Assembly: GCA_050012475.1 (NCBI GenBank) | Contig: JBEKHC010000015.1 | Coordinates: 1 to 63,232, forward strand | Length of the DNA stretch: 63,232 bases | Source of the DNA: Candidatus Velthaea sp. | GTDB lineage: Bacteria > Vulcanimicrobiota > Vulcanimicrobiia > Vulcanimicrobiales > Vulcanimicrobiaceae | Direction: 5' to 3' | Shown: piece by piece, positions 3,421 to 21,192 of the stretch | How positions within the stretch are numbered: the first letter of the stretch is position 1 | Layout: every line of letters starts with the position of its first letter | Notes under the pieces: generated by a model | Seen by the model: the letters and a program-made list of their open reading frames with translations, nothing else | What the model was told of the DNA's origin: nothing | The model's database searches: none | Program-made: the position numbers and the translations under genes

Positions 3421-5466
3421 TCACGCCGCTCGGCCGTCGGGTGCCTCGATGATGCCGGCGGGCTCGAGCACGATGTCGGTCGGAATCTCGGTATAGGCAA
3501 AGACGTCGATGTGGAAGCCGGTTTGCTCGAAAAATTCGGCCAGCATGGGCCGCAGCGCGGCGGTCGCAACGATCGCATGCGGACCGGGAACGGGTTCTTC
3601 GAGATAGCCGGCGATGCGCGTTCGCACGTGCATCGTCGTAACGGGATCGGGTGCCAAACCTCCGGCCGGGCTCCACATCCGGACGAGTTCACTCTCGAAC
3701 TGGGGGGCGAAGATCAGCGGCCGGATCCGGTGGATGCCGTCGCGGCGAAACTGCTGCGGAACGACGACGCGGCGCGCAGCCTCGGCAAGTTCGCGCGGAT
3801 CGCGCGAACCCGCTGCAGCGTCGAGAATCGTTTCGAAGACGGCGATGGGGTCACGCGGCCAAATGCGCTCCTTGAGCAGATGGGTGAAGACCCGGTGGGC
3901 CGCCGCGATCGGCAGGACGTCTCCGCCGATATCTTTGACCACCGACGGGACGCTCGCGCGCAGATGCTCGAGGAGCGTATGAAACTCCTGACGGCCGAGC
4001 AGTTCGGCGGCATGACGCCGGACGATTTCCGACAGATGTGAGCCGACAATCGAAATTGCGTCGAAGGTGAGCGCGCCGGCCTGCGTGGCGGTGTCGCGCT
4101 GAGCATAGTCGAGCCACTTCGCGTTCAAGCCGTACACGGGCTCGACGGTATCTTCGCCGGGAAGTCGAGCCAAAGTTGCCGGCCGGCCGACGGCCAGCAG
4201 CCGATCGAGCCGCACGATCCCTTCGCCGGCAACGCGGTCGCGAACCCGGATCGCGTAGGTGCGCGGATCGCGCACGCCGTCGTCGCGCAAGCGCACGCCG
4301 GGGATGACGATGCCCAATTCGGCAGCCAGCGCGCGCCGCACGTCGGCGACGCGATCCAGCAGTGCGTCGGCATTGGGCGGTGCGAGCAAGCCGTACAAAT
4401 CGCTGCCGACGTCGATCGACAGCGCATCGACGCCGACGAGCGCCAGCGCCATCTCGGGTCGCCGGATCGCGACCTTGCGGGCCTGCTCGCCAGCGGCGCT
4501 CGCGCGGGCGGCGATCCGCGCGTTGCGCCGTTGGGCGAAGTGCGCGCCGGCAAACGCGCACGCGCCGATCCCGATGAACAGCGGCGCGGGCAATGCCGGA
4601 ACGAGCCCGAGCAAGGTCACGAGCACGGCCGCCGAGCGCAGCACGTCCGGCCGGCCGATGAGCTGGCGCGCGAGATCGGTGCCCAGCGCGCCGTCGCCGG
4701 CTACCCGCGTGACCATCATCCCCATCGCCGTCGAGATCAGGAATGCCGGCAGTGTGGTCACGAGCGCGTTGCCGATCGACAGCAGCGCGAAGGTCGCGAA
4801 AGCATCGCCCGGCGAGAGCTCGTGATAGGCAATCCCGACGACGATTCCGCCGATCAGGTTGAGCGCCACGATCGCCAACGCGGCGATCGCGTCGCCCTTG
4901 ACGAACTTCCCGGCGCCGTCCATCGCGGCGTAGAAATCGGCCTCGCGCTGCACCCGGGCGCGCTTGCGGCGCGCGCCGTCGGCGTCGAGCACGCCGGCGT
5001 GCACGTCGGCATCGATCGCCATTTGCTTGCCAGGCATCGCGTCGAGCGTGAAGCGCGCGCAGACTTCGGCGACGCGCTGCGCGCCCGTCGCGATCACGAT
5101 GAATTGAATGATGATCAAAATCGCAAAGACGATCAACCCGACGACGATATTGCCGCGCACTACGAACTGCCCGAACGCCGGGATGATGGCGCCAACGCCG
5201 CCCTCGAGGTGCCCCTGCGTCAAGATCAAGCGCGTTGCGCTCACGTCGAGCGCCAGCCGGAACAGCGTCGCGAGCAAGAGCGACGGCGCGAAGGCGGAAA
5301 ACTCGAGCGGCTCCTCCACCCGCAGCGTCAGCAACAGCACCAGGGCAGAGCCGAAAATGTTGAGCGCCAGCAGGGCGTCGAGCATGACCGGCGGCAGCGG
5401 AACGATCAAAATCGCGACGATTCCCAGCACGCCGAAGGCAAACGCCGACGTCAACTTGCCGTTCAT
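3421..5466 (-). CDS. flhA: flagellar-type export gate protein FlhA (SctV family)
   Basis: RVAEV.ARFTLDAMPGKQMAIDAD and EADFY.AMDGA.KFVKGDAIA motifs; TM N-terminus plus cytoplasmic domain. Confidence 0.95.
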   Translation of the reverse strand: MNGKLTSAFAFGVLGIVAILIVPLPPVMLDALLALNIFGSALVLLLTLRVEEPLEFSAFAPSLLLATLFRLALDVSATRLILTQGHLEGGVGAIIPAFGQFVVRGNIVVGLIVFAILIIIQFIVIATGAQRVAEVCARFTLDAMPGKQMAIDADVHAGVLDADGARRKRARVQREADFYAAMDGAGKFVKGDAIAALAIVALNLIGGIVVGIAYHELSPGDAFATFALLSIGNALVTTLPAFLISTAMGMMVTRVAGDGALGTDLARQLIGRPDVLRSAAVLVTLLGLVPALPAPLFIGIGACAFAGAHFAQRRNARIAARASAAGEQARKVAIRRPEMALALVGVDALSIDVGSDLYGLLAPPNADALLDRVADVRRALAAELGIVIPGVRLRDDGVRDPRTYAIRVRDRVAGEGIVRLDRLLAVGRPATLARLPGEDTVEPVYGLNAKWLDYAQRDTATQAGALTFDAISIVGSHLSEIVRRHAAELLGRQEFHTLLEHLRASVPSVVKDIGGDVLPIAAAHRVFTHLLKERIWPRDPIAVFETILDAAAGSRDPRELAEAARRVVVPQQFRRDGIHRIRPLIFAPQFESELVRMWSPAGGLAPDPVTTMHVRTRIAGYLEEPVPGPHAIVATAALRPMLAEFFEQTGFHIDVFAYTEIPTDIVLEPAGIIEAPDGRAA

Positions 5467-6485
5467 GCGAACACCCCTTCGCGAGCGAGCGCGGCGATGA
5501 CGCGGGCAACCGCTACGAACGTCGCCGTCGGGATCGTGCGGCCGGCCTCACCTTGCGCATACAGCGCGCGGGCAAGCGCGACGTTTTCGACGATCGGAAT
5601 GCGGTGCCGGCGCGCGATCGATTTTACGTTTTGCGCCGTTTCGTCGGCCGCGCGCACCAGAATCTCGGGCACGGCGATGCTCGGCGGCGCGTAGCGGACC
5701 GCGATCGCAATGTGCGTCGGATTGACGACCACGAACGACGCATCTTTGGTGCGCTCGATCGACCCGCGCACCAGCGTGCGGTGCAGCGTCTTGCGCCGTG
5801 CGCGAGCGTTGGGATCGCCATCGTTTTCTTTTTGATCGCGCCGCATTTCTTCGAACGACATCTTGAGTTCCCGCAGCCAGCGGCGGCGCACGAGCGCGTA
5901 GTCGACGACGGCGAAGCACGCACCGGCCGCGATCGCCGCCCAGCACGCGTGCTGCGCGGCATCCAACGCCAATGCGCCGAACGCGCCGGCACCGCTCAGG
6001 GTGGTCGAGCGGGCGAACAATTCGCGCACGATCGGGGCCAACGCCAGCGTGACGGTCGCGAACGCGATGACGGCCCGCAGTGCACCCACGAGGGCTTCGG
6101 CGCCGAGCATCCGCTTCAAGCCCGCGACCGGATTGAGCCGCGCGAACTCGAGCTTGGGCGGCGTCAGCCGCAATCCGCCGGACTGCAGCACCCCCGCCGT
6201 CAGCGCTCCCGCCGCTGCAGCGCACGCCGGAATGAGGCTCAGGCCCAACGCCGTACCCAGTTCGGCCGGGAGCCGTCGAGGATCGGGCTGCGCTGCGGCA
6301 CCGCCGAGCGCGCGTGCTGCGGCAACACCGATTGCCGGTACAACGGCGAACGCGGCGAGTGCAGCGCCGGCGAACGCCGCGCTGCCGCCGATCTCGGTCG
6401 AGCGGGGGACATTGCCCTCGCGCTTGGCTTTCTGCTTGCGCGCCGGTGTCGGCTCGAAGTTCTTTTGCCCGCGGTCGGCGCTCAT
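5463..6485 (-). CDS. flhB: export switch protein FlhB (SctU family)
   Basis: N-terminal EPTP.R..KA.REG.VPRS.E; intact NPTH autocleavage motif; overlaps the flhA start. Confidence 0.95.
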   Translation of the reverse strand: MSADRGQKNFEPTPARKQKAKREGNVPRSTEIGGSAAFAGAALAAFAVVPAIGVAAARALGGAAAQPDPRRLPAELGTALGLSLIPACAAAAGALTAGVLQSGGLRLTPPKLEFARLNPVAGLKRMLGAEALVGALRAVIAFATVTLALAPIVRELFARSTTLSGAGAFGALALDAAQHACWAAIAAGACFAVVDYALVRRRWLRELKMSFEEMRRDQKENDGDPNARARRKTLHRTLVRGSIERTKDASFVVVNPTHIAIAVRYAPPSIAVPEILVRAADETAQNVKSIARRHRIPIVENVALARALYAQGEAGRTIPTATFVAVARVIAALAREGVFA

Positions 6486-7201
6486 GGCCGCCCGCCGTAA
6501 GGCACGAGCATGAGCGGATGCGCGGCCAGCGGTCCATACAGCGGAAGCGTTGCGATCGCAACGAGCAGCGCCGCGGCGAAGACGATTGGGAATGAGAGCG
6601 TAAAGCTCGAGAACCGCGGGACGACGCGTGTCACCGCCGCCAACGCGATTTGCACGACCGCGGCAACCGCGATCCCCGGCGCCGCGACGAGCAGCGCCGT
6701 TTTGGCGATCGTCTGCGGCAAGGCCAGCGCAAAACGGTACCACGACTCGCTCCCGATCAGCGCGCCGGCGCCCACGTGATCGAAGCTTTCGGCAAACGCG
6801 CGAATGACGACGGCATCGCCGTCGAGCAAAAAGAATCCGGCCAAGAACAGCGCCGACCATAAGCGGCCGAAGCCTTGCGCTGAGGTGACGGCCGCGTTGG
6901 GCACGCTGCCGCGAAAGCCGACATAGTCGTCGATCATGCGACCGCCGTAGTACGCTCCGTCGTACAGCAGCGACGCGCCGATTCCGATCGCGGCGCCGAT
7001 GGCGACTTCACCCGCGACGGCGAGACCCAAGAGCGCGGGGTCCAGCTCGCGATGAACCGCGATCGCCGGCGTGATGCCTAGGGCGAGGGCAAGCGCGAGC
7101 GCGAGCCGGACAATCATCGGCACCGCCGGATGGGTGAAACCGGGGGCGCGAAACATCAATCCCGCGCTGCGCGCGAACACCAGCAACGTCGTCTGCGTCA
7201 T
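6482..7201 (-). CDS. fliR: export apparatus protein FliR
   Basis: LVFAR..G.....P.F....VP..VR pattern, multi-TM, lies between fliQ and flhB. Confidence 0.9.
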   Translation of the reverse strand: MTQTTLLVFARSAGLMFRAPGFTHPAVPMIVRLALALALALGITPAIAVHRELDPALLGLAVAGEVAIGAAIGIGASLLYDGAYYGGRMIDDYVGFRGSVPNAAVTSAQGFGRLWSALFLAGFFLLDGDAVVIRAFAESFDHVGAGALIGSESWYRFALALPQTIAKTALLVAAPGIAVAAVVQIALAAVTRVVPRFSSFTLSFPIVFAAALLVAIATLPLYGPLAAHPLMLVPYGGRP

Positions 7202-7467
7202 CCGCCGTGGACCAGCGCCGGGATGCGCGCAAGCACGTCGGCGAACAACCGCGCGCACAGGTTCATGCCGAACCCCCCGAACAGTGCGAGCGCCGCGCCG
7301 ACCGCGATGACTTTGGGCAGCAGCGTGAGGGTTTGTTCCTGCACCTGGGTCGCCGCCTGGACGATCGCGACCGCCGCGCCGACGATTGTCGCCAACCCCA
7401 AGATCGGCAGGACCAGGATCGCGGTGACGATCAGCGCTTCGCGCAGCAGGATTGCGAATTCGGCCAC
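7198..7467 (-). CDS. fliQ: export apparatus protein FliQ
   Basis: QAATQVQEQTLTLLPK motif; 89 aa. Confidence 0.95.
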   Translation of the reverse strand: MAEFAILLREALIVTAILVLPILGLATIVGAAVAIVQAATQVQEQTLTLLPKVIAVGAALALFGGFGMNLCARLFADVLARIPALVHGG

Positions 7468-7523
7468 GTCCCAATCATGCCGGTTCGCGCTGACCGAATT
7501 AGCGCCGGATTGTTACGCGGCGA

Positions 7524-9602
7524 TTACCCCGCAGCCGGCCCGGCGCCGTCTTCGAACCGTGCGAAGCAGTTGCGCCCGCGTTCTTTGGCCCGGTACATCG
7601 CGATGTCGGCGTTGCGCACGAGCCCGGCGGCATCGGACGAATCGCTCGGATACACGGCGACGCCGACGCTCGCCGTGCACCGTATCTCGTGCCCTTCGAC
7701 CGAGAGCGGCTCGGCGATCGCCGCCAGAATCTTCCCGGCGACGAAATCGGCGTCGTCGGGTTTCGCCAGTTCCGGCAAGATGACGACAAATTCGTCGCCG
7801 CCCAATCGGCCCACGATATCGCCATGCCGAACGCAAGAGCGCATCCGCACGGCGGCCGTTTGTAACACCCGATCGCCGGCGAGATGGCCCAGCGTATCGT
7901 TGTACGACTTGAAATGATCGAGGTCGACGAACACGAGGGCGAGGATGCTGTCGTCGCGCTGGGCTTCGATCAGCAGGCGCGCGAGCGTTTCGTCGATTCC
8001 GGCCCGGTTGGGCAATTGCGTGAGCGGGTCGTGGTTGGCGGCGTGACGCAGCCGTTCTTCGGCCCGGCGGTGTTTGAGCATCTGCGAACGCTCGATGATC
8101 CGCTCGCGGAGACGCCGCGCACTATCGTGATCTTGTGCCGACCAGCGCGCACTTTGGCCGCGAACGGTTTCTTGCCACAGACGAAACGACGTGCGCGGAT
8201 GCAGCTTACCTGCGACCTCGGTGACCGGCACGCGCATGTCGCCGCCCCAATCGATCGACTTGACGACTTCTTCCCGAAAGCACAGCAGATACTCGTCGCC
8301 GCGTTCGGACAGCCGGATGAGCAGCGCACCGCACGCCCCTTGGTCACGGAGCGCGACTTCGGGCACGATCGTCGCCAGCTGGCTGCTCGCTGCAACGCCG
8401 TCTTCGGCGCCATACTGCAGCCCGGCGGCGATCGACCCGACCGATGCGTCATCGGGCACCGCGCCCAACCGTCTGAGCGTTCCGTCCACCGAAAAAGCCA
8501 GCCCCTGCGCGGCGAAGAGTTCGAGAAGCACCTGCGCGTCGGCCATCAAACCCTCCCCGAGTTCTTCGATCGATGCCAAGGTGCGGGTGTATGTACCGAT
8601 GAGCGTGTAGGCCGATAATTTGCGCTGCGCGTCTTCGTTCATCAAGCGCGAACCCAGCTGCCAGGACAGCATCCGGCCGAAAAACTCGCAGGAAGCGCGG
8701 GTGACGTAATCGACGCGCCGCGGTTGCCGATGATGACATGCGATGAGCCCCCACAACCGGCCCTCAACGATCAGCGAGACCGTCAAGCTGCCGCTCACGC
8801 CCATGTTGCGCAAGTACTCGAGGTGGACCGGCGAGACGCTGCGCAACACCGCGCGAGACAGGTCGACGGGCTGTCCCGTGCGCGGTTCGCGTTCGGGAAC
8901 GAGCGGCGCAGGAACGTATCCGGCATCCGCGACCACCCGCAGCGGGTTTGCCAGATAGAGCCGGCGCGCTTGTTCGGGAATGTCGCTGGCCGGAAAACGC
9001 AAGCCGAGGTAGGCCACCGGCAAACCGCCGTTCGTCGATTCCGCAATGACGTCGCCGTGCCAATCCTCATCGAAGCGGTAGATCAGTGCCCGATCGAACC
9101 CGCTGATGAGGCGCATTGCGTCCGCCGCATTGCGGACCAGCGTCGCAATATCGGGGGCGCGTTCCATTTGTTCGATCGGCGTGCGGACGTGCGCGAATGC
9201 GTCGAACGGATTCGGGCTCGACGAAGGTTCGTACCGTTCGAGTTCGACGATCACGACGTTGCCCGAGCGATGCAGCACGCATTCGAATTCGGCGAGCAGC
9301 GGACCCCGGCCCAGCACGAAACGCGGCGGGCTTGCGAGCGCGCGAGATTCTTCATGCAGCAAGCGTTCCAGCCGTTCGGTCTCGCCGGCGCCGAGCACCG
9401 TCGCGACGTGCGTCCCGAGCACGCCTGCGACCGGAAAACCCAGCAATGTTTCGATATTGGCGCTGACCTGCAATACGACGAGCTCGGGATCGCTGAGCAC
9501 GAACAGGACGCCGTGAGGCTGAATGCTTCCCGGAATGTGAATCGGCTCCTGAGCGCAGCGCGATTTATCGACGGGAGCCGTCGCGGATCCGTTCACGGTC
9601 AA
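7524..9602 (-). CDS. bphP: bacteriophytochrome-diguanylate cyclase (PAS-GAF-PHY-GGDEF)
   Basis: N-terminal biliverdin-binding Cys (CAQEPIHIPGSIQPHG), PASDIP, SPVHLEYL, PRTSF tongue, GGDEF A-site with RHGD I-site. Confidence 0.95.
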   Translation of the reverse strand: MTVNGSATAPVDKSRCAQEPIHIPGSIQPHGVLFVLSDPELVVLQVSANIETLLGFPVAGVLGTHVATVLGAGETERLERLLHEESRALASPPRFVLGRGPLLAEFECVLHRSGNVVIVELERYEPSSSPNPFDAFAHVRTPIEQMERAPDIATLVRNAADAMRLISGFDRALIYRFDEDWHGDVIAESTNGGLPVAYLGLRFPASDIPEQARRLYLANPLRVVADAGYVPAPLVPEREPRTGQPVDLSRAVLRSVSPVHLEYLRNMGVSGSLTVSLIVEGRLWGLIACHHRQPRRVDYVTRASCEFFGRMLSWQLGSRLMNEDAQRKLSAYTLIGTYTRTLASIEELGEGLMADAQVLLELFAAQGLAFSVDGTLRRLGAVPDDASVGSIAAGLQYGAEDGVAASSQLATIVPEVALRDQGACGALLIRLSERGDEYLLCFREEVVKSIDWGGDMRVPVTEVAGKLHPRTSFRLWQETVRGQSARWSAQDHDSARRLRERIIERSQMLKHRRAEERLRHAANHDPLTQLPNRAGIDETLARLLIEAQRDDSILALVFVDLDHFKSYNDTLGHLAGDRVLQTAAVRMRSCVRHGDIVGRLGGDEFVVILPELAKPDDADFVAGKILAAIAEPLSVEGHEIRCTASVGVAVYPSDSSDAAGLVRNADIAMYRAKERGRNCFARFEDGAGPAAG

Positions 9603-9704
9603 GCCGTCCGCACGGTTCCGGTGTTGTCGCTACGAAGATCAGCGCTCATCATTGCATCTCTTCGTGAAATGTTTCGCCCGATGCTTTTCACGGCGAGTGA
9701 AAGG

Positions 9705-10367
9705 TTAATGCTGCGTCGTGACGAGGCCGATGTCGCCGCCGGCAGAGGCCGGTTCGCTCAGCCAAGCGGCCATCGCGTCGAACGCCGCGCACGCGGCGGC
9801 ACACACTTCATCGACGTCGCCGGCGGCATCATTCAATACGCCGCAGAAGCGCCGCCAGTTGTCCGCGGTCCGCGCACCATCGCCGGCGAAGAAGCGCAGC
9901 GGTACGGCGGCGCGATCGGCAAACACGCGCGAGAGATGCTTGCAAATAACGCGTCCGCCGAGGGTCGAACCTTCGAAGACGTAGGCACAGCCGAGCGCGC
10001 GATCGGGTGTATCCAGCGGCGGCAGACGGCGGCAGCGGGTCAGGCCGGCGAGGTTGGCTTGCATCAAGCCGAGATCCAGCAAATCGCGGCGCAGCAGCTC
10101 GGTGCGCTCCGCCATGCGGACGCCCCACTCCCGGGCGAAATCGTGCGCGAGCAGCACCTGTCCGAGCGGTTCGTAGATGCCATACATCCGCTCCAGCGTG
10201 CGGGAGTATTCGGCTCGCGTGATGTCGCCGGCCAACAACCGCGGCTGCAGCGCTTCAAGGTTGCGATGACTCGCGCGGGTCGCACCGCGCAGGGTCTCAA
10301 GCACGCTTGGGATGGCGGTTGCGCAGACGGGCGAAACGTCAGCGCTGTTCACGGCGTCCCGATCCAT
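9705..10367 (-). CDS. bphO: biliverdin-producing heme oxygenase
   Basis: LR.AT...H..LE, G.AYV.EGSTLGGRVI, W..F motifs; directly upstream of the phytochrome. Confidence 0.9.
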   Translation of the reverse strand: MDRDAVNSADVSPVCATAIPSVLETLRGATRASHRNLEALQPRLLAGDITRAEYSRTLERMYGIYEPLGQVLLAHDFAREWGVRMAERTELLRRDLLDLGLMQANLAGLTRCRRLPPLDTPDRALGCAYVFEGSTLGGRVICKHLSRVFADRAAVPLRFFAGDGARTADNWRRFCGVLNDAAGDVDEVCAAACAAFDAMAAWLSEPASAGGDIGLVTTQH

Positions 10368-10693
10368 GACAAAGACAACGCGCCGGCTCCGCTGCAAGCC
10401 GGCACCGCGATCGAAGACGACGACGTCATACTCGAAGCGATTGCACCGCGTCTGTTTCGCACCTGCCCGTTCGACTCCCGAATCCTGGGAGCGTCGTTAC
10501 CCGAACCCGGCGCCGCATCGACCGCCGATTCTTTACCCGTGCTTTGCAAAGACCCGCGCAACAAATTACTGCGGTTCCCAGCGGCTCGCCGGCGCCGCGC
10601 CCCAACTCTCCGGCTTGCGGCGTAGCCGCACACGCGACGGATTCAAGGGGGTTCATTCGTTCGGATTCGTCGAGCGAAGCCGAGACGAATCCA

Positions 10694-11599: not shown

Positions 11600-11611
11600 C
11601 GGGCGCCACTT

Positions 11612-12579: not shown

Positions 12580-12597
12580 CGCAATATCTGCGGCGGT

Positions 12598-12855
12598 TTA
12601 CGGGCGTTCGATGAGTTCGGTGATGCGGACGCCGAAATTGTCGTCGATGGCGATGACCTCGCCGCGCGCGACGAGCTTGTCGTTGACCAGCAGATCAACT
12701 GGCCCGCCAGCGAGCCGGTCGAGTTCGACGATCGAGCCGGTTCCGAGCTTGAGAATATCCTCGACGAGCATTTTGCAGGTGCCCAGTTCCGCGGTGATCC
12801 TGAGCGGCACGGTCATGAGCAGGTCGAGATTTCTGCCGTTCTCCAGACTTGACAT
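12598..12855 (-). CDS. fliN: FliN/SpoA-domain C-ring protein
   Basis: NLDLLM.VPL.IT.ELG...GSIVELDRLAG.PVDLLVN.KLVARGEVI.IDDNFGVRITE. Confidence 0.95.
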   Translation of the reverse strand: MSSLENGRNLDLLMTVPLRITAELGTCKMLVEDILKLGTGSIVELDRLAGGPVDLLVNDKLVARGEVIAIDDNFGVRITELIERP

Positions 12856-13658: not shown

Positions 13659-14380
13659 TTGAGCAAGTCCATCGCCGTTTGATCGGTGCCGCCGCGGGCT
13701 TTGTTCGCTGCTGCGAGGGCCGAGAACGCGCGATACGCTTCGGAAAGCTTGACCAGGCTCGCATCGACGTCGACCGCGCCGGTATCGCGCGCGTAGGTCG
13801 CGAGCCCCGCGAATGTTCCGTCGGCGGGGGTTCCCAGATGCGCGGGGATCCCTTGCGGGGCGGCCACGCGGCGCTCGTCGAGCCGAACCGGCTGGGTTCC
13901 CGCCGGAAACCGCGCCAGCGCGATGCGCCCCGCGGTGACCCGTTCGACGCTGCGTTCCGTGGTGCGCGGATCGATCGTCGAACGCGTATACGAGAGCGTG
14001 CCGTCGCTTTCGACGCGAACGTTGGTGCAGCGGCCCAGGGCCACGTCGTTCGCCGGCAACGTCAGCGGGACGGGCAGTGAACCGCGCGCGTCGCCGCCGG
14101 GATAGCCCAGGATCGCGGCACCGTCGGCCGCGCGCAGCGCGCCGCGCTCGACGGTGAGGCCGCCGTCGCGCGTAAACGATCGCGCACCCCCGGCGTCCTC
14201 GGTGACGAAGTACGCGTTGGGCGGCGCCGCGACGCTGAGCGGATCGGATGCATGTTCGGGCGACCGGACGGCATTGACGTCGTTGTTCGTCGCAAACCCG
14301 CCGGCGGTGTACGCGCGGGCAACGTCTTGCGCGCGCGCTGCGATCCGGCTCAGCGCTTCGGCGGTCGCCGCGGCGATCAT
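13655..14380 (-). CDS. degenerate rod/hook (FlgF/FlgG/FlgE-like) protein
   Basis: PLSVA.P.NAYFV....G...FTRDG.L.V..G.L...DG..ILG core and C-terminal VDV...LV.L..A.RAF helix; no ANNLAN N-terminal motif. Confidence 0.75.
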   Translation of the reverse strand: MIAAATAEALSRIAARAQDVARAYTAGGFATNNDVNAVRSPEHASDPLSVAAPPNAYFVTEDAGGARSFTRDGGLTVERGALRAADGAAILGYPGGDARGSLPVPLTLPANDVALGRCTNVRVESDGTLSYTRSTIDPRTTERSVERVTAGRIALARFPAGTQPVRLDERRVAAPQGIPAHLGTPADGTFAGLATYARDTGAVDVDASLVKLSEAYRAFSALAAANKARGGTDQTAMDLLK

Positions 14381-14916
14381 CCCGCCACCTCCAACCGCGT
14401 TCCGCCGGCAGCGAGCACGAAGCGGGCGTGCGCGAGCGCGCGATCGACGCGTTCGCGCAACTGCGGCGAACACAACGCGACGATGCGCGTCGCCGTGCGA
14501 TCCGTTCGCACCAACAGCTGCACGCGTCCATCGCCGGCGTCGATCGCGATCGTCGCGCTGCGCTGCGTGGCGCGCGCGACGTGCCGTACGATCGCGCGTT
14601 CGATTCGGCGCGCCAAGTCGCTGCCAGCCGAACGCCGTTCCAGGAGCTCCGGCGCTTGCCCCCGCGCCGTGGTCGGCACCCCGCCGGCGGAGGCCCGGTA
14701 GGCCGTCGCGGCCGGCGCCGTGCCGGCAGGCGCCGTCGTTTTCGGCGCGCCGCTGCGCGGCGGCGCAACGCACGTCGCGGCGTGCGGCGGCGCAGCACCG
14801 CCCCCGCACGGTTGCGCTAAATGTAAAGCCGAGAACCAGGCCACTGAGAGCGCCCGGCGATCCATGTCCGGCAGCCGGGTCGCGACGACCGCGACCGACC
14901 GTGTTGCAGTTGTCAT
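14377..14916 (-). CDS. short FliK-like (ruler/substrate-switch) protein
   Basis: Ala/Pro-rich linker then ATIAID.G.GRVQLLV...RIVALCS..LRERVDRAL..AR..L..GG, resembling the FliK C-terminal domain; occupies the fliK position. Confidence 0.5.
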   Translation of the reverse strand: MTTATRSVAVVATRLPDMDRRALSVAWFSALHLAQPCGGGAAPPHAATCVAPPRSGAPKTTAPAGTAPAATAYRASAGGVPTTARGQAPELLERRSAGSDLARRIERAIVRHVARATQRSATIAIDAGDGRVQLLVRTDRTATRIVALCSPQLRERVDRALAHARFVLAAGGTRLEVAG

Positions 14917-14947
14917 GGCCCGAGCATAGCGCCGGGCAGTCACGAAT

Positions 14948-16501
14948 TTACGACGGTGTTGTTGCCGTGCGAAGACGCCCGTCGTCGAAGCTCGTGCTCT
15001 TTTCGAGATACAACGCCCCATCGGCAAGATCGAACGTAACGATGAAATTGCGCAGGATGCCCAAGCCGACGTTCCCGGCATCGATGCGATCGGCGAAGGC
15101 GCCCTTCTCGGCGGTCACGACGTCGGTGACTTGATGGTACAGCGGCACGTCGCCCAGCAAGAGTTCGTCCAGCGATGAACGATACGTCGGCGCGGCTCCG
15201 CCGATACCGTAATTGGAGACGTTCGAACGGCTGAACGGGACGATGCCGGGATGGGCGGCGATGAACGGCCGATACAGGAGCAATTCGCCGCTGTTCCCGG
15301 TGTCGACGATGAACGGCGCGTCGATCGCGCCGTCCAAACGAAATACCGCTTCGACCAAACCGCGGTCGCCGTCGAGCGCCACCCGGACGCCGCGCGGCAC
15401 GAACGAACCGGGAACGCCGAAGCGCATCGCATGCCGCGCGAAGTCGATCTCGACGAGCGCCGAAGCGAAAAACGGCATGCCCAAGATGCCGTCGAGCTGC
15501 GAGCTCCCGCCCAGCGAACCGCGCAAGTCGATCGAACTGGCGACCAGATCGTCGAGATGGGCGCTGCCGATGTCGATGCGCGGGAGCCGGAGCACGTGTA
15601 AACCGCCCGTTCGGCTGGCGCCGCGAACCTCGAACGCACCGAGTTCGGCGAGCCCGGCTTCGCGCGCCACGCGTGAATCCAAGAGCACGCTCTGCGCGCC
15701 GGTATCGAGCAAGAACTCATAGGTTTTCGCGCCGATCGCGACCGCGCATGCGAGGTGCGCGTTGCGTTCGACGAGCGGAACGGTCTGCACCGTATCGGCA
15801 TGAATCGTCCGGCCGTGCAGCGGCGCAAAGACGTCGGCGGAGACCGGCTTATCGACGTCGAGCGCGGTCGTTTGCTGTTCCACGTCGAATTGCCGCTCGC
15901 CGTCGGAAGTGACCATTTTGAACGGGAAGCGGTGCCCGCCGACCTCGTGCCAATCGGAGAAATCGATCGTGGTCGGGCCGTCACCGTCGAGATATTCGAC
16001 GCGCAGCGGCAAACCGGTCTGGGTATCGATCCACAGCGTTTCGGGTTCGCCGCCTTCGGCCCGCACTTCCAGCCGCCACGCGCGCACGCCGGCCAGCGAG
16101 CCATAGCCCAAAAACGTCGACCGTTCCGGCGCGGCGACGAAATCGCCGCTGTCGACGAAATCCGCGGTCAGCGCGCGCCGGCGCAGGAAGCCGGTGAGTT
16201 CGCGCACGTTGCCGTCCGCGGTGCGCAAATACAGGCGCTTGTCCAGGCGCAGCGTCGTTTCCGAGCGCGGGCCCAAGCGTTCATCCTCGCGTTCGTTCGC
16301 GCCCGCGCGCCATGAATGAAACTCGCCGCTCAACCCGGCGCCCGTTACCGTGCCCGACGACTCGAACGACTTCAGCCCGGCATCGCCCATCGCGCGCGCG
16401 TAGCTCGCCAGAATCTCCGTTACCGGCGGCGGCACAGCGGCCGGGTGCGCCGCGGCGGGCAGCGCCGCGGCGAACGTCAGCGCAGCAGCAAACGCCCGCA
16501 G
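14948..16501 (-). CDS. secreted protein with two retropepsin-like aspartyl protease domains (start uncertain, possibly CTG)
   Basis: Signal-peptide-like RAFAAALTFAAALPAAA; LLDTGA and IVDTGN catalytic motifs; DGILG and GNVGL..L..F motifs. Confidence 0.85.
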   Translation of the reverse strand: MRAFAAALTFAAALPAAAHPAAVPPPVTEILASYARAMGDAGLKSFESSGTVTGAGLSGEFHSWRAGANEREDERLGPRSETTLRLDKRLYLRTADGNVRELTGFLRRRALTADFVDSGDFVAAPERSTFLGYGSLAGVRAWRLEVRAEGGEPETLWIDTQTGLPLRVEYLDGDGPTTIDFSDWHEVGGHRFPFKMVTSDGERQFDVEQQTTALDVDKPVSADVFAPLHGRTIHADTVQTVPLVERNAHLACAVAIGAKTYEFLLDTGAQSVLLDSRVAREAGLAELGAFEVRGASRTGGLHVLRLPRIDIGSAHLDDLVASSIDLRGSLGGSSQLDGILGMPFFASALVEIDFARHAMRFGVPGSFVPRGVRVALDGDRGLVEAVFRLDGAIDAPFIVDTGNSGELLLYRPFIAAHPGIVPFSRSNVSNYGIGGAAPTYRSSLDELLLGDVPLYHQVTDVVTAEKGAFADRIDAGNVGLGILRNFIVTFDLADGALYLEKSTSFDDGRLRTATTPS

Positions 16502-16505
16502 CGCT

Positions 16506-17090
16506 TTACTGAACGTTGCGGTATTTGGCGTACGAGCCCAGGACGTTTTGGACGTAGTTTTGCGTCTCAGCATAAGGCGGGACGTCGCCGTACTTCTCCA
16601 CGGCCCCGGGTCCCGCATTGTACGCCGCGACTGCCAAGCGAACGTCGCCGTTGAAGCGGTCGAGCAAGCCCTTGAGATAGCGCGTTCCGCCGGCCACGTT
16701 CTGCGCCGGGTCGTATGAATTGCGCACGCCGACCGCCTGTGCCGTCGACGGCATGAGCTGCATGAGCCCGGCTGCCCCGACTTTTGAGGTCGCGTTGGCG
16801 TCGAACCCCGATTCGTTGGCAATGATCGCTTTGACCAGTGACGGATCGACCTGCCAGGTCGTCGAGTTCTGGTTCACCAGCGCGTCGATCTGCTCGGGCG
16901 GAACGGGCGCGGGTGCGAGGGATGCGGCTTGCGCGGGCGCGGCGGGCAGCGCTCCTTGCGCTGCGGTTCCCAGCGCCGAGGCCAGGGCGTTCTGAAACGC
17001 AGGGCTCCGGCCGGTGTCGTCGCTCGCGGGCACTCCGGTGATCTCGGCAATCCGGCTTTGGACCGCCGAAATATCAGCGAGAATATCCAT
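16506..17090 (-). CDS. lytic transglycosylase (SLT domain), flagellum-associated type
   Basis: AII..ESGFD..A.S..GA.GLMQLMP.TA, AAYNAGPG, PPY.ETQNYV; no Sec signal; overlaps the fliI end. Confidence 0.95.
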   Translation of the reverse strand: MDILADISAVQSRIAEITGVPASDDTGRSPAFQNALASALGTAAQGALPAAPAQAASLAPAPVPPEQIDALVNQNSTTWQVDPSLVKAIIANESGFDANATSKVGAAGLMQLMPSTAQAVGVRNSYDPAQNVAGGTRYLKGLLDRFNGDVRLAVAAYNAGPGAVEKYGDVPPYAETQNYVQNVLGSYAKYRNVQ

Positions 17091-18333
17091 CGCTTAGCGT
17101 ATCGGCCAACATACCCAGGTCCCTGAGCGTCGCGTCCGGATCGGCCGGGGAGCGTTGGCGAAGAAAGCCGGCGATCGCCGCTTCGGCGGCGACGGCCCGG
17201 CGTACGGCAGGATCGCCGGCCCCGGGATCGAGCCCGAAGCCGCGGGCTTCGCGCGTTTCGTCGAGCACCGCGACCGCGTGCCGAAGCACATGTGCCGCCG
17301 CGAGATGCTCGGGCGAGACGACATCGGCGATCGTCCGGCTGGTCGAGGCCGGAATATCGATGGCCGGAAACCAGCCCTGCCGCGCGAGACGGTCGTTGAG
17401 TGCGATGTGGCCGTCCAGCACCGAACGGCAAGCATCGCTGACCGGATCGCGCTCGTCGGCCCCGTCGGTGAGGACGGTGGCAACGAGCGTGATCGAACCG
17501 CGGCCGAACTGTCCCGCACGCTCCAGCAGCTGCGTGAGCAAACTAAAAACGCTGGGCGGATATCCGCCGCGGCCGACCGGCTCGCCCGCAGCAACGCCGA
17601 CGTCGCGGGCCGCAGCGGCGACGCGCGCCAAGCTGTCGAGCACCAGCAAGACGTCCAAACCGCGCCGGCGCAGCGCCTCAGCTTGCGCGAACGCAACTTC
17701 GGCCGCGCGCAGCCGCTCGGCCGCGCTGCGATCGCTCGTCGCACAGACGATCGTCGTTCGCGCGTCGAGCCGCGCGAGCCAGCGTTCCGCTTCGCGGCCC
17801 CGTTCGCCCACCAGACCGATCACGGTCACGTCGGCCGACGACCCGTCGACGATGGTCTCGAGCAGCGTCGACTTGCCGCAGCCCGGACTGCCGAAAATGC
17901 CGATCCGCGCGCCGACGCCGAAGGCCAACGGTCCGTCGACGGCGCGAACGCCGGTCCGGAAACGGCGCCGAATCGGCCCGCGATCCCCCGGCGCCGCAGC
18001 ACTCGCCGCGCCTCCGCGCCGCCCGCGCGGCGCCGGGCGACCGTCGAGCGGAGCACCCAAGGCATCCAGACCGCGGCCGAGACACGCCGTGCCCAGGCAC
18101 AAATCGAGCACCGCCGGGTCCGCCTCGACCCGGTCGCCGACGGCGAGGCCGTCGACCCCGGCAAACGGCGCCAAGCTGACCCGCGCGCCGTCGAGGGCGC
18201 TGACCCGGGCCGGCACGATCCGGCCGCCGCGGGTCGCGATGCGGGCACCGGCCCCGATGCACAACGCCGGCATGCGCGCATCGACGAGCCCGCCCCGAAT
18301 CGCCACGATCGTTCCAACCGGCGTCCCGATCAC
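17074..18333 (-). CDS. fliI: export ATPase FliI (SctN family)
   Basis: Walker A GSPGCGKSTL, GERGRE, LLVLDSL.R, GYPPSVF, LDGHI.L; GTGA overlap with the fliH stop. Confidence 0.95.
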   Translation of the reverse strand: MIGTPVGTIVAIRGGLVDARMPALCIGAGARIATRGGRIVPARVSALDGARVSLAPFAGVDGLAVGDRVEADPAVLDLCLGTACLGRGLDALGAPLDGRPAPRGRRGGAASAAAPGDRGPIRRRFRTGVRAVDGPLAFGVGARIGIFGSPGCGKSTLLETIVDGSSADVTVIGLVGERGREAERWLARLDARTTIVCATSDRSAAERLRAAEVAFAQAEALRRRGLDVLLVLDSLARVAAAARDVGVAAGEPVGRGGYPPSVFSLLTQLLERAGQFGRGSITLVATVLTDGADERDPVSDACRSVLDGHIALNDRLARQGWFPAIDIPASTSRTIADVVSPEHLAAAHVLRHAVAVLDETREARGFGLDPGAGDPAVRRAVAAEAAIAGFLRQRSPADPDATLRDLGMLADTLSDGYSR

Positions 18334-18872
18334 GACGCGCTCTCCAGCACCTGCGCCAACCGAACCGCCAGACGCGCATCGATATCGCCGTTGCGGCAAA
18401 CCAGCACGGCGTCGCCGGGCTGCAGTTCGGGATCGCTGACGACGGGCAAATCGCAGGCAACGAGCGCGTCGGCCGGGCAGACGCGCAGCGACAGCGGCTC
18501 ATCCGCTCGGCGTTCGGCAATGATCTGCCGGGCAAGCGGCTCGATATCGGGCGGCGCGAGACGAAGTTCCCGGCCCAACACGGCGGCGGCGAAATCACGC
18601 ACGAGTTCGACCGTCAACGCCGCAAACGCATCGGCGAGTGCGGCACGAAACAGGCGCGCTTCGCGGATCGCCGCGCCGGACTCGCTGGGCCCGGCCGGCG
18701 CGCGCGCGGCCGGCGGCGCGATCGCCGGGGCCGGCGAGGACGTCTCCCGCACCGCCGGCTGCGGAGCATCGCGTTCGGGCAGCTGCGCTCGAACCGGGAG
18801 CGTTTCCGACGCGGGTGGCCGCGAGCGGATGATCTCGGCCAGCGAGACGAACCGCGCGTCACCCGCGGGCAC
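18330..18872 (-). CDS. fliH: shortened FliH/SctL-like ATPase regulator
   Basis: GAGGAG RBS and GTG start; C-terminal LRVCP.D....VVSDPEL.PGD.VL...NG.IDARL..RL FliH pattern. Confidence 0.75.
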   Translation of the reverse strand: MPAGDARFVSLAEIIRSRPPASETLPVRAQLPERDAPQPAVRETSSPAPAIAPPAARAPAGPSESGAAIREARLFRAALADAFAALTVELVRDFAAAVLGRELRLAPPDIEPLARQIIAERRADEPLSLRVCPADALVACDLPVVSDPELQPGDAVLVCRNGDIDARLAVRLAQVLESAS

Positions 18873-20343
18873 GGAGCAGCTCCTCGGCATCCGGAACGAG
18901 CGGCGAGGCGGCGCGGGCGAGTCGCCGGACGATTGCCGCGCGTTCGTCGGGCGGATACAGTTCGAGCACCGCGGTCGCGGTGGCAGCCGGCAACGCCGAG
19001 ATGATCGCTGCGGCGATATGCGGCGGTTCGCCCGCCAGCGCGCCGCGAACCCGGGTGGGCGGAATGCCCGCGACTTCACGCGAGGTCGCCCGGACGTTGG
19101 CCGAATCGATCAGCTTCACCGCGAGCGCATAAGCCGGCCGTGCACCGAACCAGCCCGCAAACGCCAGTGACAGCGCAACGATCGCTTGCGGCACGACGCC
19201 GGCGAAGGCGCCGACGAGCGCCCAAGCCGGCACGAGTGGCCCGCGCACCGAAGCCGGCGTTGCGAAACGCACCGCTTCGACGTGCAAGACGTCGCCGCGC
19301 GTCGGATCGAGCCCCGCGGCCGCTTCTGCCAGCGAGCGGATTTTCGCCAAGTCCAGGCCTTTGGCTTCGTCGACGAAGACGGCAACGGAGCGGCGTCCGG
19401 TGGCGCCCGGCAAAGCGACGAGCGTTTCGTCGTGGGTGTCGCTGCCGCGTTCCTCGACGCTGTTGGCCTTGGTGTACTTCTTGAGGTTCGAGTTGTAGCG
19501 CTCATCGCTGGCCGAGCGCGAAAGCGTGCCGCCCAAGGCGGTGCGGCGCACGTCGTGAACGTCGCGGCGCTCGGCGATCAGGTCGCGGTGTACGCGCACG
19601 ATCGTGACATTCGGCCCGAACGCGGCATCGAGCGCCGACTGCAACGCGGCCGCGATGCCGTCGTCGTCGCCGTCGCCGCCGGCTTCGGCGCCAGAACCGA
19701 GCTCGGGCGCCAGTCCACGGTCGTCGAGCACGGTGACGTGCGCCGCATCGAGACCCGGCACGCCGCCGGCGACGAACGCGCGGATCCCCGCGAGCGTTCG
19801 CGCGTTCATGCGCGCCCCGTTGGCGAGCGTTATCCGCACGCTTGCGGACGCGTCGTGCGAGGCTTCGTCGGCGTACATGCCGGTGCGGGCCGGCGCGATG
19901 ATGACGCGGGCATCGGCGACGCCGTCGAGTCCGCGCAACCCGAGCGCCAGATCGGACGCCAATCCGTCGCGTGTCTGGGCCTCGAGCACCGACTGCGGCG
20001 TCAGTGCGCCGGCGTGCGCAAACAGTTCGGCCGAGGTCGCCAAATGCGCGTGCGGCACGCCCGCGATGGACAGCCGCAGCAGGATGTCGCTGCGTTTGGC
20101 CGGTGCGACGCGGACGTTGTCGGCGCCGGGCGCATACGCCACGTTCCAGGCCGCGAGCCGCGTCTGCACTTCGCCGACCTGGTCGGGACTGAGCGGAGCG
20201 GCGAACAGCGCGATCCGGTCGTCGCGCGTCAGGGCGAAACTCGCCGCCACCAGCCCGACGGCCGCGAGGACGAACGCGCCGTACAAGGCTTTGGTTTTCA
20301 GCGGCGCGGCCAGCACGCGAGCCAACATCGGAGTGACGTTCAT
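18859..20343 (-). CDS. fliF: MS-ring protein FliF fused to a FliG middle-domain-like C-terminus
   Basis: TM1, RBM motifs (L...L.GLDGVADARV.I, ASASV.I.L, VAGGVPGL...HVTVLDDRG), TM2, then L.GEPPHIAAAIISAL....A.AVL..YP..ERA.IV.RLA (similar to the FliG EHPQ domain). Confidence 0.85.
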   Translation of the reverse strand: MNVTPMLARVLAAPLKTKALYGAFVLAAVGLVAASFALTRDDRIALFAAPLSPDQVGEVQTRLAAWNVAYAPGADNVRVAPAKRSDILLRLSIAGVPHAHLATSAELFAHAGALTPQSVLEAQTRDGLASDLALGLRGLDGVADARVIIAPARTGMYADEASHDASASVRITLANGARMNARTLAGIRAFVAGGVPGLDAAHVTVLDDRGLAPELGSGAEAGGDGDDDGIAAALQSALDAAFGPNVTIVRVHRDLIAERRDVHDVRRTALGGTLSRSASDERYNSNLKKYTKANSVEERGSDTHDETLVALPGATGRRSVAVFVDEAKGLDLAKIRSLAEAAAGLDPTRGDVLHVEAVRFATPASVRGPLVPAWALVGAFAGVVPQAIVALSLAFAGWFGARPAYALAVKLIDSANVRATSREVAGIPPTRVRGALAGEPPHIAAAIISALPAATATAVLELYPPDERAAIVRRLARAASPLVPDAEELLRARG

Positions 20344-20346
20344 CGC

Positions 20347-20619
20347 TTAGATCTGCATGCCGAGCAGCGTGTTGAGCGCTTGAGCGGCGCGCTGTGCGCC
20401 GCTCGCCGCAACGGCCAGCGCGATATCAGCCTGGGCCCGGCTGACGACCATCTCTTGCAACCCGCCATGGCCGCGGGCGAACGCCGCTTCCGCGCCGTCG
20501 GCGGTTGCCAGCGCTTGGCCGGCCGCATCGACGAGCCGTTCGAATTGCCTGGCAGCGTCGTTCGATTCGCCGGCCGGCGAGCTTGGGCCGCGATCGGGAA
20601 CGATCGGTTCGATCCGCAT
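20347..20619 (-). CDS. fliE: hook-basal body protein FliE
   Basis: F..LV..A....A....F.RG...LQEMVV...QADIAL...LLGMQI C-terminus. Confidence 0.85.
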   Translation of the reverse strand: MRIEPIVPDRGPSSPAGESNDAARQFERLVDAAGQALATADGAEAAFARGHGGLQEMVVSRAQADIALAVAASGAQRAAQALNTLLGMQI

Positions 20620-20999
20620 CAGCCGCGCCCGACGTCGATGGTGCGTTCGGCCAGCCGCTTCGCGGTATCGAAAATCGAAGCATTTTGTTCGTACGCCCGC
20701 TGCGCGTCGAGGACCGCGATCATCTCGGTGAGCGCATCGCCCGAGCCCGGCTCAGAGCGCACGCCGACCACGGCCGATCCGGCTGCCGATGCGGCGAGAT
20801 CGTCCGGATCCGGATCCATTACCTCGTCGGCCGCCGGGTCCGCGGCCGTTCGGAATTGCGCGACCAGCCGCGCGTAGGGGTGACTCGGGGTCGACGCTTG
20901 AGCGGCCGCGACGTTGCGCGCCGCGATGTCCAGGACCGAGCGCTGCGCGCTCATTGCGGACGCGGCCGAAGCCAGCAGATCCATCTCGCTGAAGGCCAT
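20619..20999 (-). CDS. flgC: basal-body rod protein FlgC (divergent)
   Basis: ASAMSAQR..LDI.A.NVA.A...PY.R; D.LTEMI.VLDAQRAYEQN..IFD.AK.L...TIDVG. Confidence 0.85.
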   Translation of the reverse strand: MAFSEMDLLASAASAMSAQRSVLDIAARNVAAAQASTPSHPYARLVAQFRTAADPAADEVMDPDPDDLAASAAGSAVVGVRSEPGSGDALTEMIAVLDAQRAYEQNASIFDTAKRLAERTIDVGRG

Positions 21000-21000
21000 G

Positions 21001-21192
21001 TTATTTCGCGACCGTGCGGAGTTCGCCCAAACGCGCGTGCACCGCGTTGAGGAGCGCTTCGGTAAAGATTGCGGCCTGGGCGATGCGCGCCATGCGCGGT
21101 TCGTCGACACCGTTGCCGCGCGCCGAGTGAGTAAGCGTCGTTCGGGCTGCCAACGCTGCCGAGCCGGTGGAGTTAACCGTTGCGAGTTCCAT
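21001..21192 (-). CDS. flgB: truncated FlgB-like protein (C-terminal helix only, 63 aa)
   Basis: GGAG RBS; RGNGVD..RMA..A.A.IF..ALL......L..L..V resembles the FlgB C-terminus; lies immediately before flgC. Confidence 0.6.
   Translation of the reverse strand: MELATVNSTGSAALAARTTLTHSARGNGVDEPRMARIAQAAIFTEALLNAVHARLGELRTVAK

Follow-up and report, generated by a model that had tools for sequence, protein, structure and literature searches.

A stretch of 63,232 nucleotides from a Candidatus Velthaea genome (contig JBEKHC010000015.1), referred to here as the window, carries on its minus strand, at 3421-21192, a cluster of flagellar-type type III export genes. The window probably holds one copy of an export apparatus that is derived from the flagellum and specific to the Eremiobacterota (the phylum is also named Vulcanimicrobiota or WPS-2), and which would resemble a basal body without filament, stator or L and P rings. 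Since it lacks propeller and motor, yet is conserved and under selection across the phylum, swimming is probably not what the apparatus is for. The window is contig C15 of a 5.36-Mb assembly of 204 contigs (completeness 93.8%, contamination 5.3%), and its G+C content is 66.3%, compared to a contig mean of 63.8 ± 1.9%.

A preliminary description, made from the letters of the window, had proposed a minus-strand cluster with an intact export core and translationally coupled genes, and both points held. Matches to Pfam or NCBIfam profiles were obtained for FlhA, FlhB, FliP, FliQ, FliR, FliN, FliI, FliH, FliF, FliE and a FlgC-like protein. The motifs that had been quoted for FlhA (at residue 139), FlhB (NPTH, at residue 250) and FliI (Walker A and GERGRE) were all present, and all reading frames of the cluster were intact. 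Neighbouring genes overlap, by 1-4 nt, at no fewer than eight junctions (FlgC/FliE, FliH/FliI, FliK-like/hook-like, hook-like/FliM-like, FliM-like/FliN, FliQ/FliR, FliR/FlhB and FlhB/FlhA). FlhA, FlhB, FliQ, FliR, FliI and FliH of the core export set scored above the Pfam gathering score, and FliP was recognised by its NCBIfam model. Read downwards from position 21192, the genes encode a 63-aa open reading frame (ORF), FlgC-like, FliE-like, FliF, FliH-like, FliI, an SLT-domain protein, a LolA-like/aspartic protease, a candidate FliK/SctP-like protein, a FlgE/F/G-type axial protein, FliM-like, FliN, FliP, methylenetetrahydrofolate reductase (MTHFR), heme oxygenase, bacteriophytochrome-GGDEF, FliQ, FliR, FlhB and FlhA. 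The bacteriophytochrome-GGDEF, heme oxygenase, MTHFR and LolA-like aspartic protease are the four non-flagellar genes within this span. No genes for MotA/MotB or for filament, cap and junction proteins (FliC, FliD, FlgK/L) were found in the window cluster.

Part of the rotor is present in altered form. The MS-ring protein FliF (18859-20343, minus strand, 494 aa; Pfam YscJ_FliF E 4.9e-22, YscJ_FliF_C E 1e-9) carries in its C-terminal cytoplasmic part, the last ~65 residues, a FliG middle-domain-like fragment (about residues 430-478; Pfam FliG_M E 1.3e-7), in keeping with the claim that FliG survives here only as a fused fragment. In a 10-row FliF alignment this segment was conserved in 7 same-family rows, and was recognisable but cut short in 3 class-level rows. 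The FliM-fold C-ring protein (12855-13658, minus strand, 267 aa) matched only FliMN_C in Pfam (E 7.8e-14), and PF02154 was not detected by the same search. An AF2 model of this protein, built from 7 sequences (pLDDT 72.4), begins right at the folded domain. Foldseek matched it best to Salmonella C-ring entries (chains of ~290-300 residues, E 2e-9) and also to crystal structures of the FliM middle domain (TMt about 0.6). The earlier statement that FliM lacks its CheY-binding N-terminus agrees with the short length and the missing PF02154, while the absence of the CheY-binding peptide itself is something we infer from length only. A prediction of the complex between FliF residues 420-494 and the FliM-like protein gave a median score of 0.60, compared to 0.00 for the best control; 116 of 157 solved complexes attain the mark for this score, as do 2 of 215 mismatched pairs, with values of 0.60 or lower in only 18 of the 157 and in both passing mismatches. 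The runs shared at least 94% of their contacts, with a partner pLDDT of at least 83. The prediction lends weak support to a pairing of the FliF C-terminus with the FliM-like protein, and, as FliG-FliM complexes have already been solved, the pass may reflect likeness and not binding.

The distribution of these genes among relatives separates them from motility genes. The panel examined comprised 41 genomes, ranging from the own genome through genus, family and order to class; Flagellin_N was detected in 18 of them and MotB_plug in the same 18. FliG_C was found in 17 of these flagellin-bearing genomes, the exception being a genome of 82% completeness, and a canonical-type FlhA (~39-40% identity) was likewise found in 17 of the 18, but not in G003 (90% complete, 280 contigs). 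The 23 panel genomes without flagellin gave no match to FliG_C or MotB_plug, and 19 of them carried an FlhA of the window type, at 45-69% identity. A FliF match was present in 20 of the 23, as were exactly three Flg_bbr_C matches, three single-contig genomes being among them; two small genomes had no match to the window FlhA type, FliF or Flg_bbr_C. The three Flg_bbr_C proteins are the FlgC-like protein and an adjacent FlgF/FlgG-like pair, and the presence of only three such proteins in 20 of the 23 indicates that no canonical FlgE or FlgK remains there. FliD_C, FlgD, FlgI and FliM PF02154 were each found in none of five flagellin-less genomes, three of them single-contig, and FlgH in neither of two, whereas genomes with a canonical set gave FlgH in 3/3 and FlgI in 5/5. 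The same five flagellin-less genomes each had one match to the MotA_ExbB family, of a type also seen away from motB in flagellated genomes. In G012, a single-contig genome, the two systems share one chromosome, so that their co-occurrence is not an artefact of binning. The tallies include genomes flagged as unpublished (G011, G024 and G036 in the panel, G176 in the phylum sample described below), and no conclusion rests on them. For the cultured relative Vulcanimicrobium alpinus, the published description reports that no flagella were seen, that there was no flagellin gene and that motility and phototaxis depend on type IV pili (PMC9758169); Table S8 of that paper lists a fliN gene.

Similar loci from four families of other classes encode FliF, a separate full-length FliG, FliI, SLT, a short hook-like protein, FliM, FliN, FliP, FliQ, FliR, FlhB and FlhA. 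In other-class genomes MotB_plug was found in 0/5, and MotA_ExbB gave zero or one match in each of seven. Flagellin was absent from all sampled genomes of families f5 (0/14), f11 (0/4) and f7 (0/1), which carry the same three rod proteins. Taken with the fused fragment in the window's class, this supports an apparatus that would be ancestral to several classes of Eremiobacterota and that has been reduced further in this class, where all that is left of FliG would be a FliM-docking piece joined to FliF.

The preliminary description had treated the cluster as the single export set of the genome, which proved incorrect: the genome has three FlhA genes. The best-scoring one lies on contig C163 and is part of a complete canonical set spread over C42, C93 and C163. 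Contig C42 encodes FliF, full FliG, FliH, FliI, FliJ, FliK, FlgE with D2, MotA, MotB, FliM with PF02154, FliN/Y, FliO, FliP, FliQ and FliR, and C93 encodes FlgB, FlgC, FliE, rod proteins, FlgH, FlgI and four flagellin-domain proteins. The only FliG_C of the genome is in the canonical cluster on C42, FlgH and FlgI are present in one copy each beside the canonical rod genes on C93, and MotB_plug has three matches, on C20, C145 and C42. The canonical flagellum and the window set are alike in export gate, ATPase complex, MS ring, rod, FliM/FliN and overall core order. They differ in that the former has full FliG, FliM with PF02154, FliJ, FliO, MotA/MotB, FlgH, FlgI and flagellins, and its FlhA is only 37-39% identical to that of the window and belongs to another clade. 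In the canonical set the frames of FliG, FliK and FlgE with D2 measure 366, 656 and 513 aa. Contig C10 carries the third FlhA (55% identity to that of the window), within a paralogous reduced cluster (C10:33800-53300; L009, L010), which has its own FliJ, FlgF-like, FlgG-like, hook-like, FliM-like, FliN, FliP and FliA-like sigma factor but neither protease nor metF. Second copies of the reduced type were also observed in genomes G002 and G103. Canonical fliG, hook, filament and stator genes elsewhere in the genome, grouping with a single export set, had been named as a finding that would speak against a repurposed machine. Such genes are indeed present, on C42 and C93, but because they go with their own FlhA this argument is inapplicable as written.

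A comparison of FlhA with flagellar and SctV sets had been proposed, and we carried it out. Among the nearest 31 representatives in a library of 1.84 billion proteins, all 31 scored higher with the FlhA model than with SctV, those of the window type falling below the FlhA cut-off. A 50-row tree (IQ-TREE in its 'quick' setting, LG+C20, branch support from the SH-aLRT test only) divided a flagellar side of 44 rows from an SctV side of 6 rows, including five plasmid SctVs, with a split support of 100. The window-type FlhAs formed a 12-row clade (support 100) with a long stem (0.68) on the flagellar side. Its sister (98) was a 5-row clade (100) consisting of FlhAs of the four other-class families and the library representative P0004. 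Canonical FlhAs of the window's own order formed a 6-row clade (100) elsewhere in the tree, grouped (97) with a Clostridia FlhA. An earlier 58-row tree lacking the other-class rows gave the same flagellar side and placed the window clade weakly (81-83). These trees support a position of the window system inside the flagellar lineage, in an Eremiobacterota-specific clade apart from the resident canonical flagellum; judged by FlhA, the reduced lineage is not private to this genome and spans several classes of the phylum.

In all five same-family loci compared, which come from different genera or species, the order from FlgC to FlhA was kept, including the protease and metF between fliP and fliQ; the exceptions were the SLT gene, not matched in 2/5, and the FliK-like gene, not matched in 1/5. 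The genes are spread over three loci in a sister family of the class. The ratio of nonsynonymous to synonymous substitution rates (dN/dS) between the window and a congener was 0.06-0.28 in 16/16 genes, at values of dS (0.66-2.05) that make the ratios approximate. In a sample of 201 genomes from the phylum, an FlhA matching that of the window (E<=1e-150) was present in 111/131, 3/3 and 14/15 genomes of the class's three families. Outside the class this filter does not separate reduced from canonical types, for which reason loci of other classes were judged by direct inspection and included in the tree. The proposal that the cluster is under selection and not in decay is thus borne out by dN/dS and by synteny across genera, and the cluster appears, as far as comparison of genomes supports it, to be a conserved, selected apparatus of flagellar descent and not a decaying pseudo-operon. 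Of the further proposal of a repurposed apparatus, conservation, selection and existence in many relatives devoid of flagellin, FliG_C and MotB can be upheld, whereas a function in secretion or contact is putative.

The axial proteins are small and divergent. The FlgC-like proximal rod protein (20619-20999, minus strand, 126 aa) matched Pfam Flg_bbr_C (E 1.4e-5) and, below the cut-off, NCBIfam FlgC (E 1.8e-12). The start of the FliE-like gene (20347-20619, minus strand, 90 aa) overlaps the FlgC stop by 1 nt, and its product passes the Pfam FliE cut-off narrowly (E 1.3e-4; 22.5 bits, cut-off 22.4). A hook-like axial protein of the FlgG/FlgE type (13655-14380, minus strand, 241 aa) consists of D0 and D1 only. 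Its N-terminal motif is degenerate, in line with the lack of ANNLAN pointed out earlier; Pfam Flg_bb_rod gave no match, and LlgE_F_G_D1 matched below the cut-off (E 1.3e-4). The AF2 model of this protein, from 9 sequences (pLDDT 77.5), shows terminal helices and a beta-rich core, and Foldseek returned 42 PDB matches at E<=0.001 (best E 2.1e-8), led by distal-rod FlgG and by FlgE-D1/hook entries. The first gene of the operon, at the flgB position, is a conserved 63-aa ORF (21001-21192, minus strand; orthologues aligned in 7 rows). Its conservation was confirmed, but the proposed identity as a reduced FlgB came out of no search: a PDB profile search gave only chance-level matches (E >= 0.46), and no relevant Pfam family was found in any of 7 members.

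A FlgF-like and a FlgG-like protein of the window's system are encoded on contig C57, and each has the canonical N-terminal motif. Next to their genes come a small conserved ORF and then a FliA/WhiG-like sigma factor (108 bits, below the cut-off). This four-gene arrangement is repeated in three single-contig relatives. The small ORF (L038, 11151-11321; counterparts L010, L039, L040 and L041) has a common hydrophobic motif. The name FlgJ rod-binding region was considered for it and dropped, as no such Pfam family was found in the five at E<=10.

A candidate ruler or switch protein of FliK/SctP type (14377-14916, minus strand, 179 aa) is conserved in 6 rows. Pfam Flg_hook was found in 1/6 orthologues, weakly (E 0.065), and an hhalign comparison with canonical FliK aligned the right region at a value that was not significant (E 0.29). 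Atlas leads pointed to HpaP/SctP clusters by features (0.92 and 0.90) and to Flg_hook by structure (TM 0.42-0.46), and a PDB profile search gave only VirB10 (E 6.2). FliH and FliK had been described as miniaturised. For FliH this is so, its length being ~186 aa compared to up to 301 aa in the canonical copy; the 179-aa protein is likewise short beside canonical FliK (up to 656 aa), but its identity as FliK comes from leads only. The FliM-like protein, at 267 aa, compares with up to 334 aa. An SLT-domain lytic transglycosylase (16506-17090, minus strand, 194 aa; Pfam SLT E 2.6e-32) had as its best NCBIfam name, below the cut-off, the Borrelia flagellar-assembly lytic transglycosylase (E 5.4e-26).

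These parts suggest how the apparatus might be built. FlhA, FlhB, FliP, FliQ and FliR would form an inner-membrane export gate inside the FliF ring. A simplified FliM/FliN platform with FliH/FliI would be docked directly by FliF, whose C-terminus would carry the FliM-binding part of FliG. With neither the FliG torque domain nor stators the ring would be undriven, and we infer that the machine does not rotate. The gate would export axial proteins, namely the FliE-like protein, the 63-aa protein, the FlgC-like protein, the FlgF-like and FlgG-like proteins of C57 and the D0-D1-only FlgG/FlgE-like protein; these would form a rod, for which the SLT enzyme would open a passage through peptidoglycan. 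The NPTH motif of FlhB and the FliK/SctP-like candidate hint at the retention of a substrate switch, and hence at later substrates; the FliA-like sigma factor next to flgF/flgG likewise hints that assembly still governs gene expression. Since no L or P ring and no dedicated secretin was detected, the periplasm or the outer membrane is where the rod would most likely end. Candidate roles are protein delivery to the periplasm or cell surface, or regulation coupled to assembly.

Our more specific reconstruction, on which our confidence is evenly balanced, is that a basal body lost its filament, stators and L and P rings long ago and was inherited vertically in several classes as a non-rotating type III machine, that FliG was welded to FliF in the class Eremiobacteria, and that this represents a second, independent first step towards an injectisome. 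A structural or regulatory device, which builds only its own rod and acts through the FliA-like sigma factor, cyclic di-GMP (c-di-GMP) or another machine such as type IV pili, is in our view possible though rather unlikely. It would accord with the FliA/WhiG-like sigma factor found beside the FlgF/FlgG-like genes in 5/5 loci (C57, C10, G007, G009 and G018), with the phytochrome-GGDEF inserted in the window's copy, with the type IV pilus motility of V. alpinus and with the retention of flagellar type III secretion system (T3SS) genes reported for the non-flagellated Lysobacter enzymogenes (PMC7277350). The retained NPTH motif and the FliK/SctP-like candidate argue instead for more than one class of substrate, no anti-sigma factor FlgM was identified, and the small ORF between the FlgG-like and sigma factor genes gave a Pfam match in 0/5. 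This device would also fit the fact that Pfam and NCBIfam scans recognised no cargo or chaperone genes in the cluster, and the same fact weighs against an exporter. Several other points weigh against our interpretation. Absences were established by profile searches of metagenome-assembled genomes (MAGs), in which very divergent flagellin, stator or ring proteins can escape. A complete flagellum is present in this genome and in 17 others of the 41, so that cross-talk between the systems is possible, and in the other-class family f17 flagellin-domain matches occur in 6/13 genomes. With the FliJ of C10 as tblastn query, only the C10 and C42 copies were found in the genome, none for the window, and nothing convincing in 8 related loci. 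The FliK/SctP-like assignment is a lead, as is the placing of the 63-aa ORF in an Atlas FlgB cluster (0.87). The dN/dS ratios are affected by dS near saturation, and the trees come from quick searches with many rows of atypical amino-acid composition.

A second, highly divergent but functional flagellum, whose filament, hook, rotor and stator are encoded elsewhere and lie beyond detection, appears improbable to us. Homologues of rod, MS ring and C ring are all present, the homologous cluster of other classes has a full-length FliG, and 11 genomes of one genus (g34) have sub-threshold Flagellin_N matches (E about 1e-4 to 1e-5). Such a flagellum would have to have evaded searches that failed to detect flagellin and MotB_plug in 23 and FliG_C in 24 of the 41 panel genomes, even though the window FlhA type occurs in 19 of the 23 flagellin-less ones, and that found FliD, FlgD, FlgI and FliM PF02154 in 0/5; the FliF of the window has a fragment of the FliG middle domain only, and no flagella were reported to be seen on cultured V. 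alpinus. We regard as very improbable, and as already disfavoured, a relic operon that is decaying after loss of motility. Shortening of FliH, the FliK-like, hook-like and FliM-like proteins and FliG would be expected of a relic, as would weak profile scores: only two of 18 stretches scanned (fliP and fliN) passed the curated NCBIfam cut-off, most components scoring below. The intact frames, the dN/dS values in 16/16 genes, the synteny across genera and the occurrence of the lineage in most sampled genomes of the class's three families are contrary to decay, as are the upkeep of a paralogous second copy and the position of the genome's only clear metF inside the operon. An injectisome-type, non-flagellar T3SS acting on eukaryotic or bacterial targets, also disfavoured already, deserves almost no credence. 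FlhB, FliI and FliF have about equal NCBIfam scores for flagellar and Sct models, marginally better for Sct (SctU 207.6 vs FlhB 198.9, SctN 357.9 vs FliI 351.6, SctJ 37.3 vs FliF 35.1 bits). FlhA, however, lies on the flagellar side with a split support of 100 and its 31 nearest representatives all prefer the FlhA model, and flagellar rod proteins are present. Pfam and NCBIfam scans of the cluster found no SctC, SctD, SctF or translocon families, and no genome-wide search for secretins was made, as pilus secretins would confound it.

An export apparatus of flagellar descent that does not drive swimming has several parallels. In Buchnera aphidicola, a published account describes filament-less basal bodies, with export and basal-body genes kept in the absence of flagellin, that are thought to serve export and not motility (PMC8109811). 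Buchnera is an endosymbiont with a reduced genome, and its set is what recently remained of an enterobacterial flagellum of canonical type, whereas the Eremiobacterota lineage is free-living, phylum-wide and old, a comparison made by description only. The Buchnera set keeps FliG, hook and L and P rings. The Eremiobacterota system, unlike that of Buchnera, has no L and P rings, carries in this class a FliG fragment fused to FliF, and can coexist with a separate canonical flagellum. We know of no comparable fusion, set of rod genes with sigma factor or phylum-wide clade in the work on Lysobacter. There, a genus-level remnant within the Gammaproteobacteria is concerned, compared to a phylum-wide clade in the Eremiobacterota; in the non-flagellated soil bacterium L. 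enzymogenes OH11, homologues of the flagellar T3SS are reported now to control type IV pilus twitching (PMC7277350, PMC9927559). The 'Myxo' non-flagellar T3SS of Myxococcales, or needleless T3SS*, is described as being devoid of motility parts, outer-membrane channel and needle, is argued to be functional from conservation and synteny, and has been proposed as an intermediate in exaptation of the flagellum (PMC3459982, PMC12075869). It belongs to the non-flagellar (Sct) lineage, whereas the Eremiobacterota system falls by its FlhA within the flagellar lineage and still has rod proteins, FliE, FliM and FliN, which indicates an independent reduction and not a member of the Myxo group. A hat-shaped structure at the inner membrane, associated with proteins of the flagellar T3SS yet unconnected with motility, was seen by electron cryotomography in species with ordinary flagellar genes (PMC9380563). 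Our literature search, whose scope did not extend to subscription journals, found no paper describing the Eremiobacterota system.

Transitions from flagellum to exporter are central to the origin of the injectisome, and few living intermediates are available (Myxococcales and endosymbiont remnants). If our interpretation is true, the Eremiobacterota would offer a second, independent natural case of the first step proposed for that origin, caught within the flagellar lineage. The graded series from full FliG in some classes to the fusion of FliF with a FliG fragment would bear on which parts a non-rotating type III machine needs, and on attachment of the C ring in the absence of FliG. Surveys that score 'flagellar genes' in MAGs of Eremiobacterota may mistake the reduced system for a sign of motility. 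The host bacteria occur in abundance in peat, permafrost and polar soils, and the cultured V. alpinus makes electron cryotomography and genetics feasible.

The remaining components are encoded on the minus strand as follows. FlhA (3421-5466, 681 aa; Pfam FHIPEP E 6e-193; NCBIfam FlhA 621 vs SctV 470 bits, both below the cut-off) has an ATG that overlaps the FlhB stop, and the ATG of FlhB (5463-6485, 340 aa; Pfam Bac_export_2 E 6.4e-72), in which NPTH is the autocleavage motif, overlaps the FliR stop. The ATG of FliR (6482-7201, 239 aa; Pfam Bac_export_1 E 1.7e-32) in turn overlaps the stop of FliQ (7198-7467, 89 aa; Pfam Bac_export_3 E 5.2e-20). FliP (11612-12271, 219 aa) scored 235 bits with NCBIfam fliP (cut-off 217), and FliN (12598-12855, 85 aa; Pfam FliMN_C E 8.6e-25) scored 102 bits with NCBIfam fliN (cut-off 84). 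The FliI/SctN-type export ATPase (17074-18333; Pfam ATP-synt_ab E 6e-63) starts at a GTG at 18333 that overlaps the FliH stop, with an alternative TTG at 18399; its NCBIfam scores were 358 bits for SctN and 352 bits for FliI clade 1, both below the cut-off. The start of the short FliH-like protein (18330-18890; Pfam FliH E 1.4e-7) is provisional.

The non-flagellar genes of the span differ in how widely they are shared. A protein that combines a LolA-like domain with two aspartic protease domains of retropepsin type (14948-16573, minus strand, start provisional; Pfam Asp_protease_2 E 1.8e-17, LolA_like E 1.5e-5) has a hydrophobic, signal-peptide-like N-terminus and a DTG triad in each retropepsin-type domain. 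Its gene was syntenic in 5/5 same-family loci and had a tblastn match in 0/4 class-level loci, so that its place in the cluster is confined to the window's own family. The metF gene (10694-11599, minus strand; Pfam MTHFR E 1.1e-91) lies between fliP and fliQ, as it does in all five same-family loci. By tblastn it was the genome's only strong homologue, the next best being 23% identical, and the embedding of this housekeeping gene argues that the operon is transcribed. The heme oxygenase (9705-10397, minus strand; Pfam Heme_oxygenase E 1.2e-10) and the bacteriophytochrome (PAS_2-GAF-PHY) fused to a GGDEF diguanylate cyclase (7524-9602, minus strand; Pfam GGDEF E 5.8e-50, PHY E 4.6e-39) had no tblastn match in 8 related loci, which marks them as insertions in the window's copy. 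Their position between metF and fliQ would put light-dependent c-di-GMP synthesis within a type III operon. The GGDEF domain of the phytochrome had tblastn matches on more than 50 contigs of the genome, indicating a very large repertoire of c-di-GMP signalling.

A GAF-PAS adenylate/guanylate cyclase is encoded at 21319-23106 on the plus strand; its gene and the operon's first gene are transcribed divergently and share an intergenic region of ~125 bp. Sequences upstream of the operon from 6 genomes showed no evident promoter of sigma-28 type; a TAnnnT-like -10 sequence and a GGTAAC-like upstream element were all that could be made out there by eye.

Within genus g34, genomes G081, G086, G093, G101, G117, G133, G139, G155, G156, G163 and G213 each have a single sub-threshold Flagellin_N match and no proper flagellin; these matches could represent a divergent axial or tip protein, or noise. 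A third FlhA-family gene of a same-order genome (G028:C346:131800-134400; L138), 35% identical, grouped with an annotated Mycetohabitans SctV (support 100) and may be a true injectisome-type gene either in, or contaminating, the MAG G028. An annotated FlhA from the Sinorhizobium meliloti plasmid pSme442-208 (L126) lay on a branch of 2.23 on the SctV side of the first tree, and was omitted from the second. Relatives of FliF are encoded in 217 stretches, and among the best 80, which were listed, the closest are in Candidatus Velthaea and other Baltobacteraceae. Four contigs labelled Limnocylindrales, Acidoferrum or Acidiferrales (L075, L105, L120 and L122) carry an Eremiobacterota-type FliF at 48-61% identity, and are probably mis-binned or mislabelled MAG contigs.

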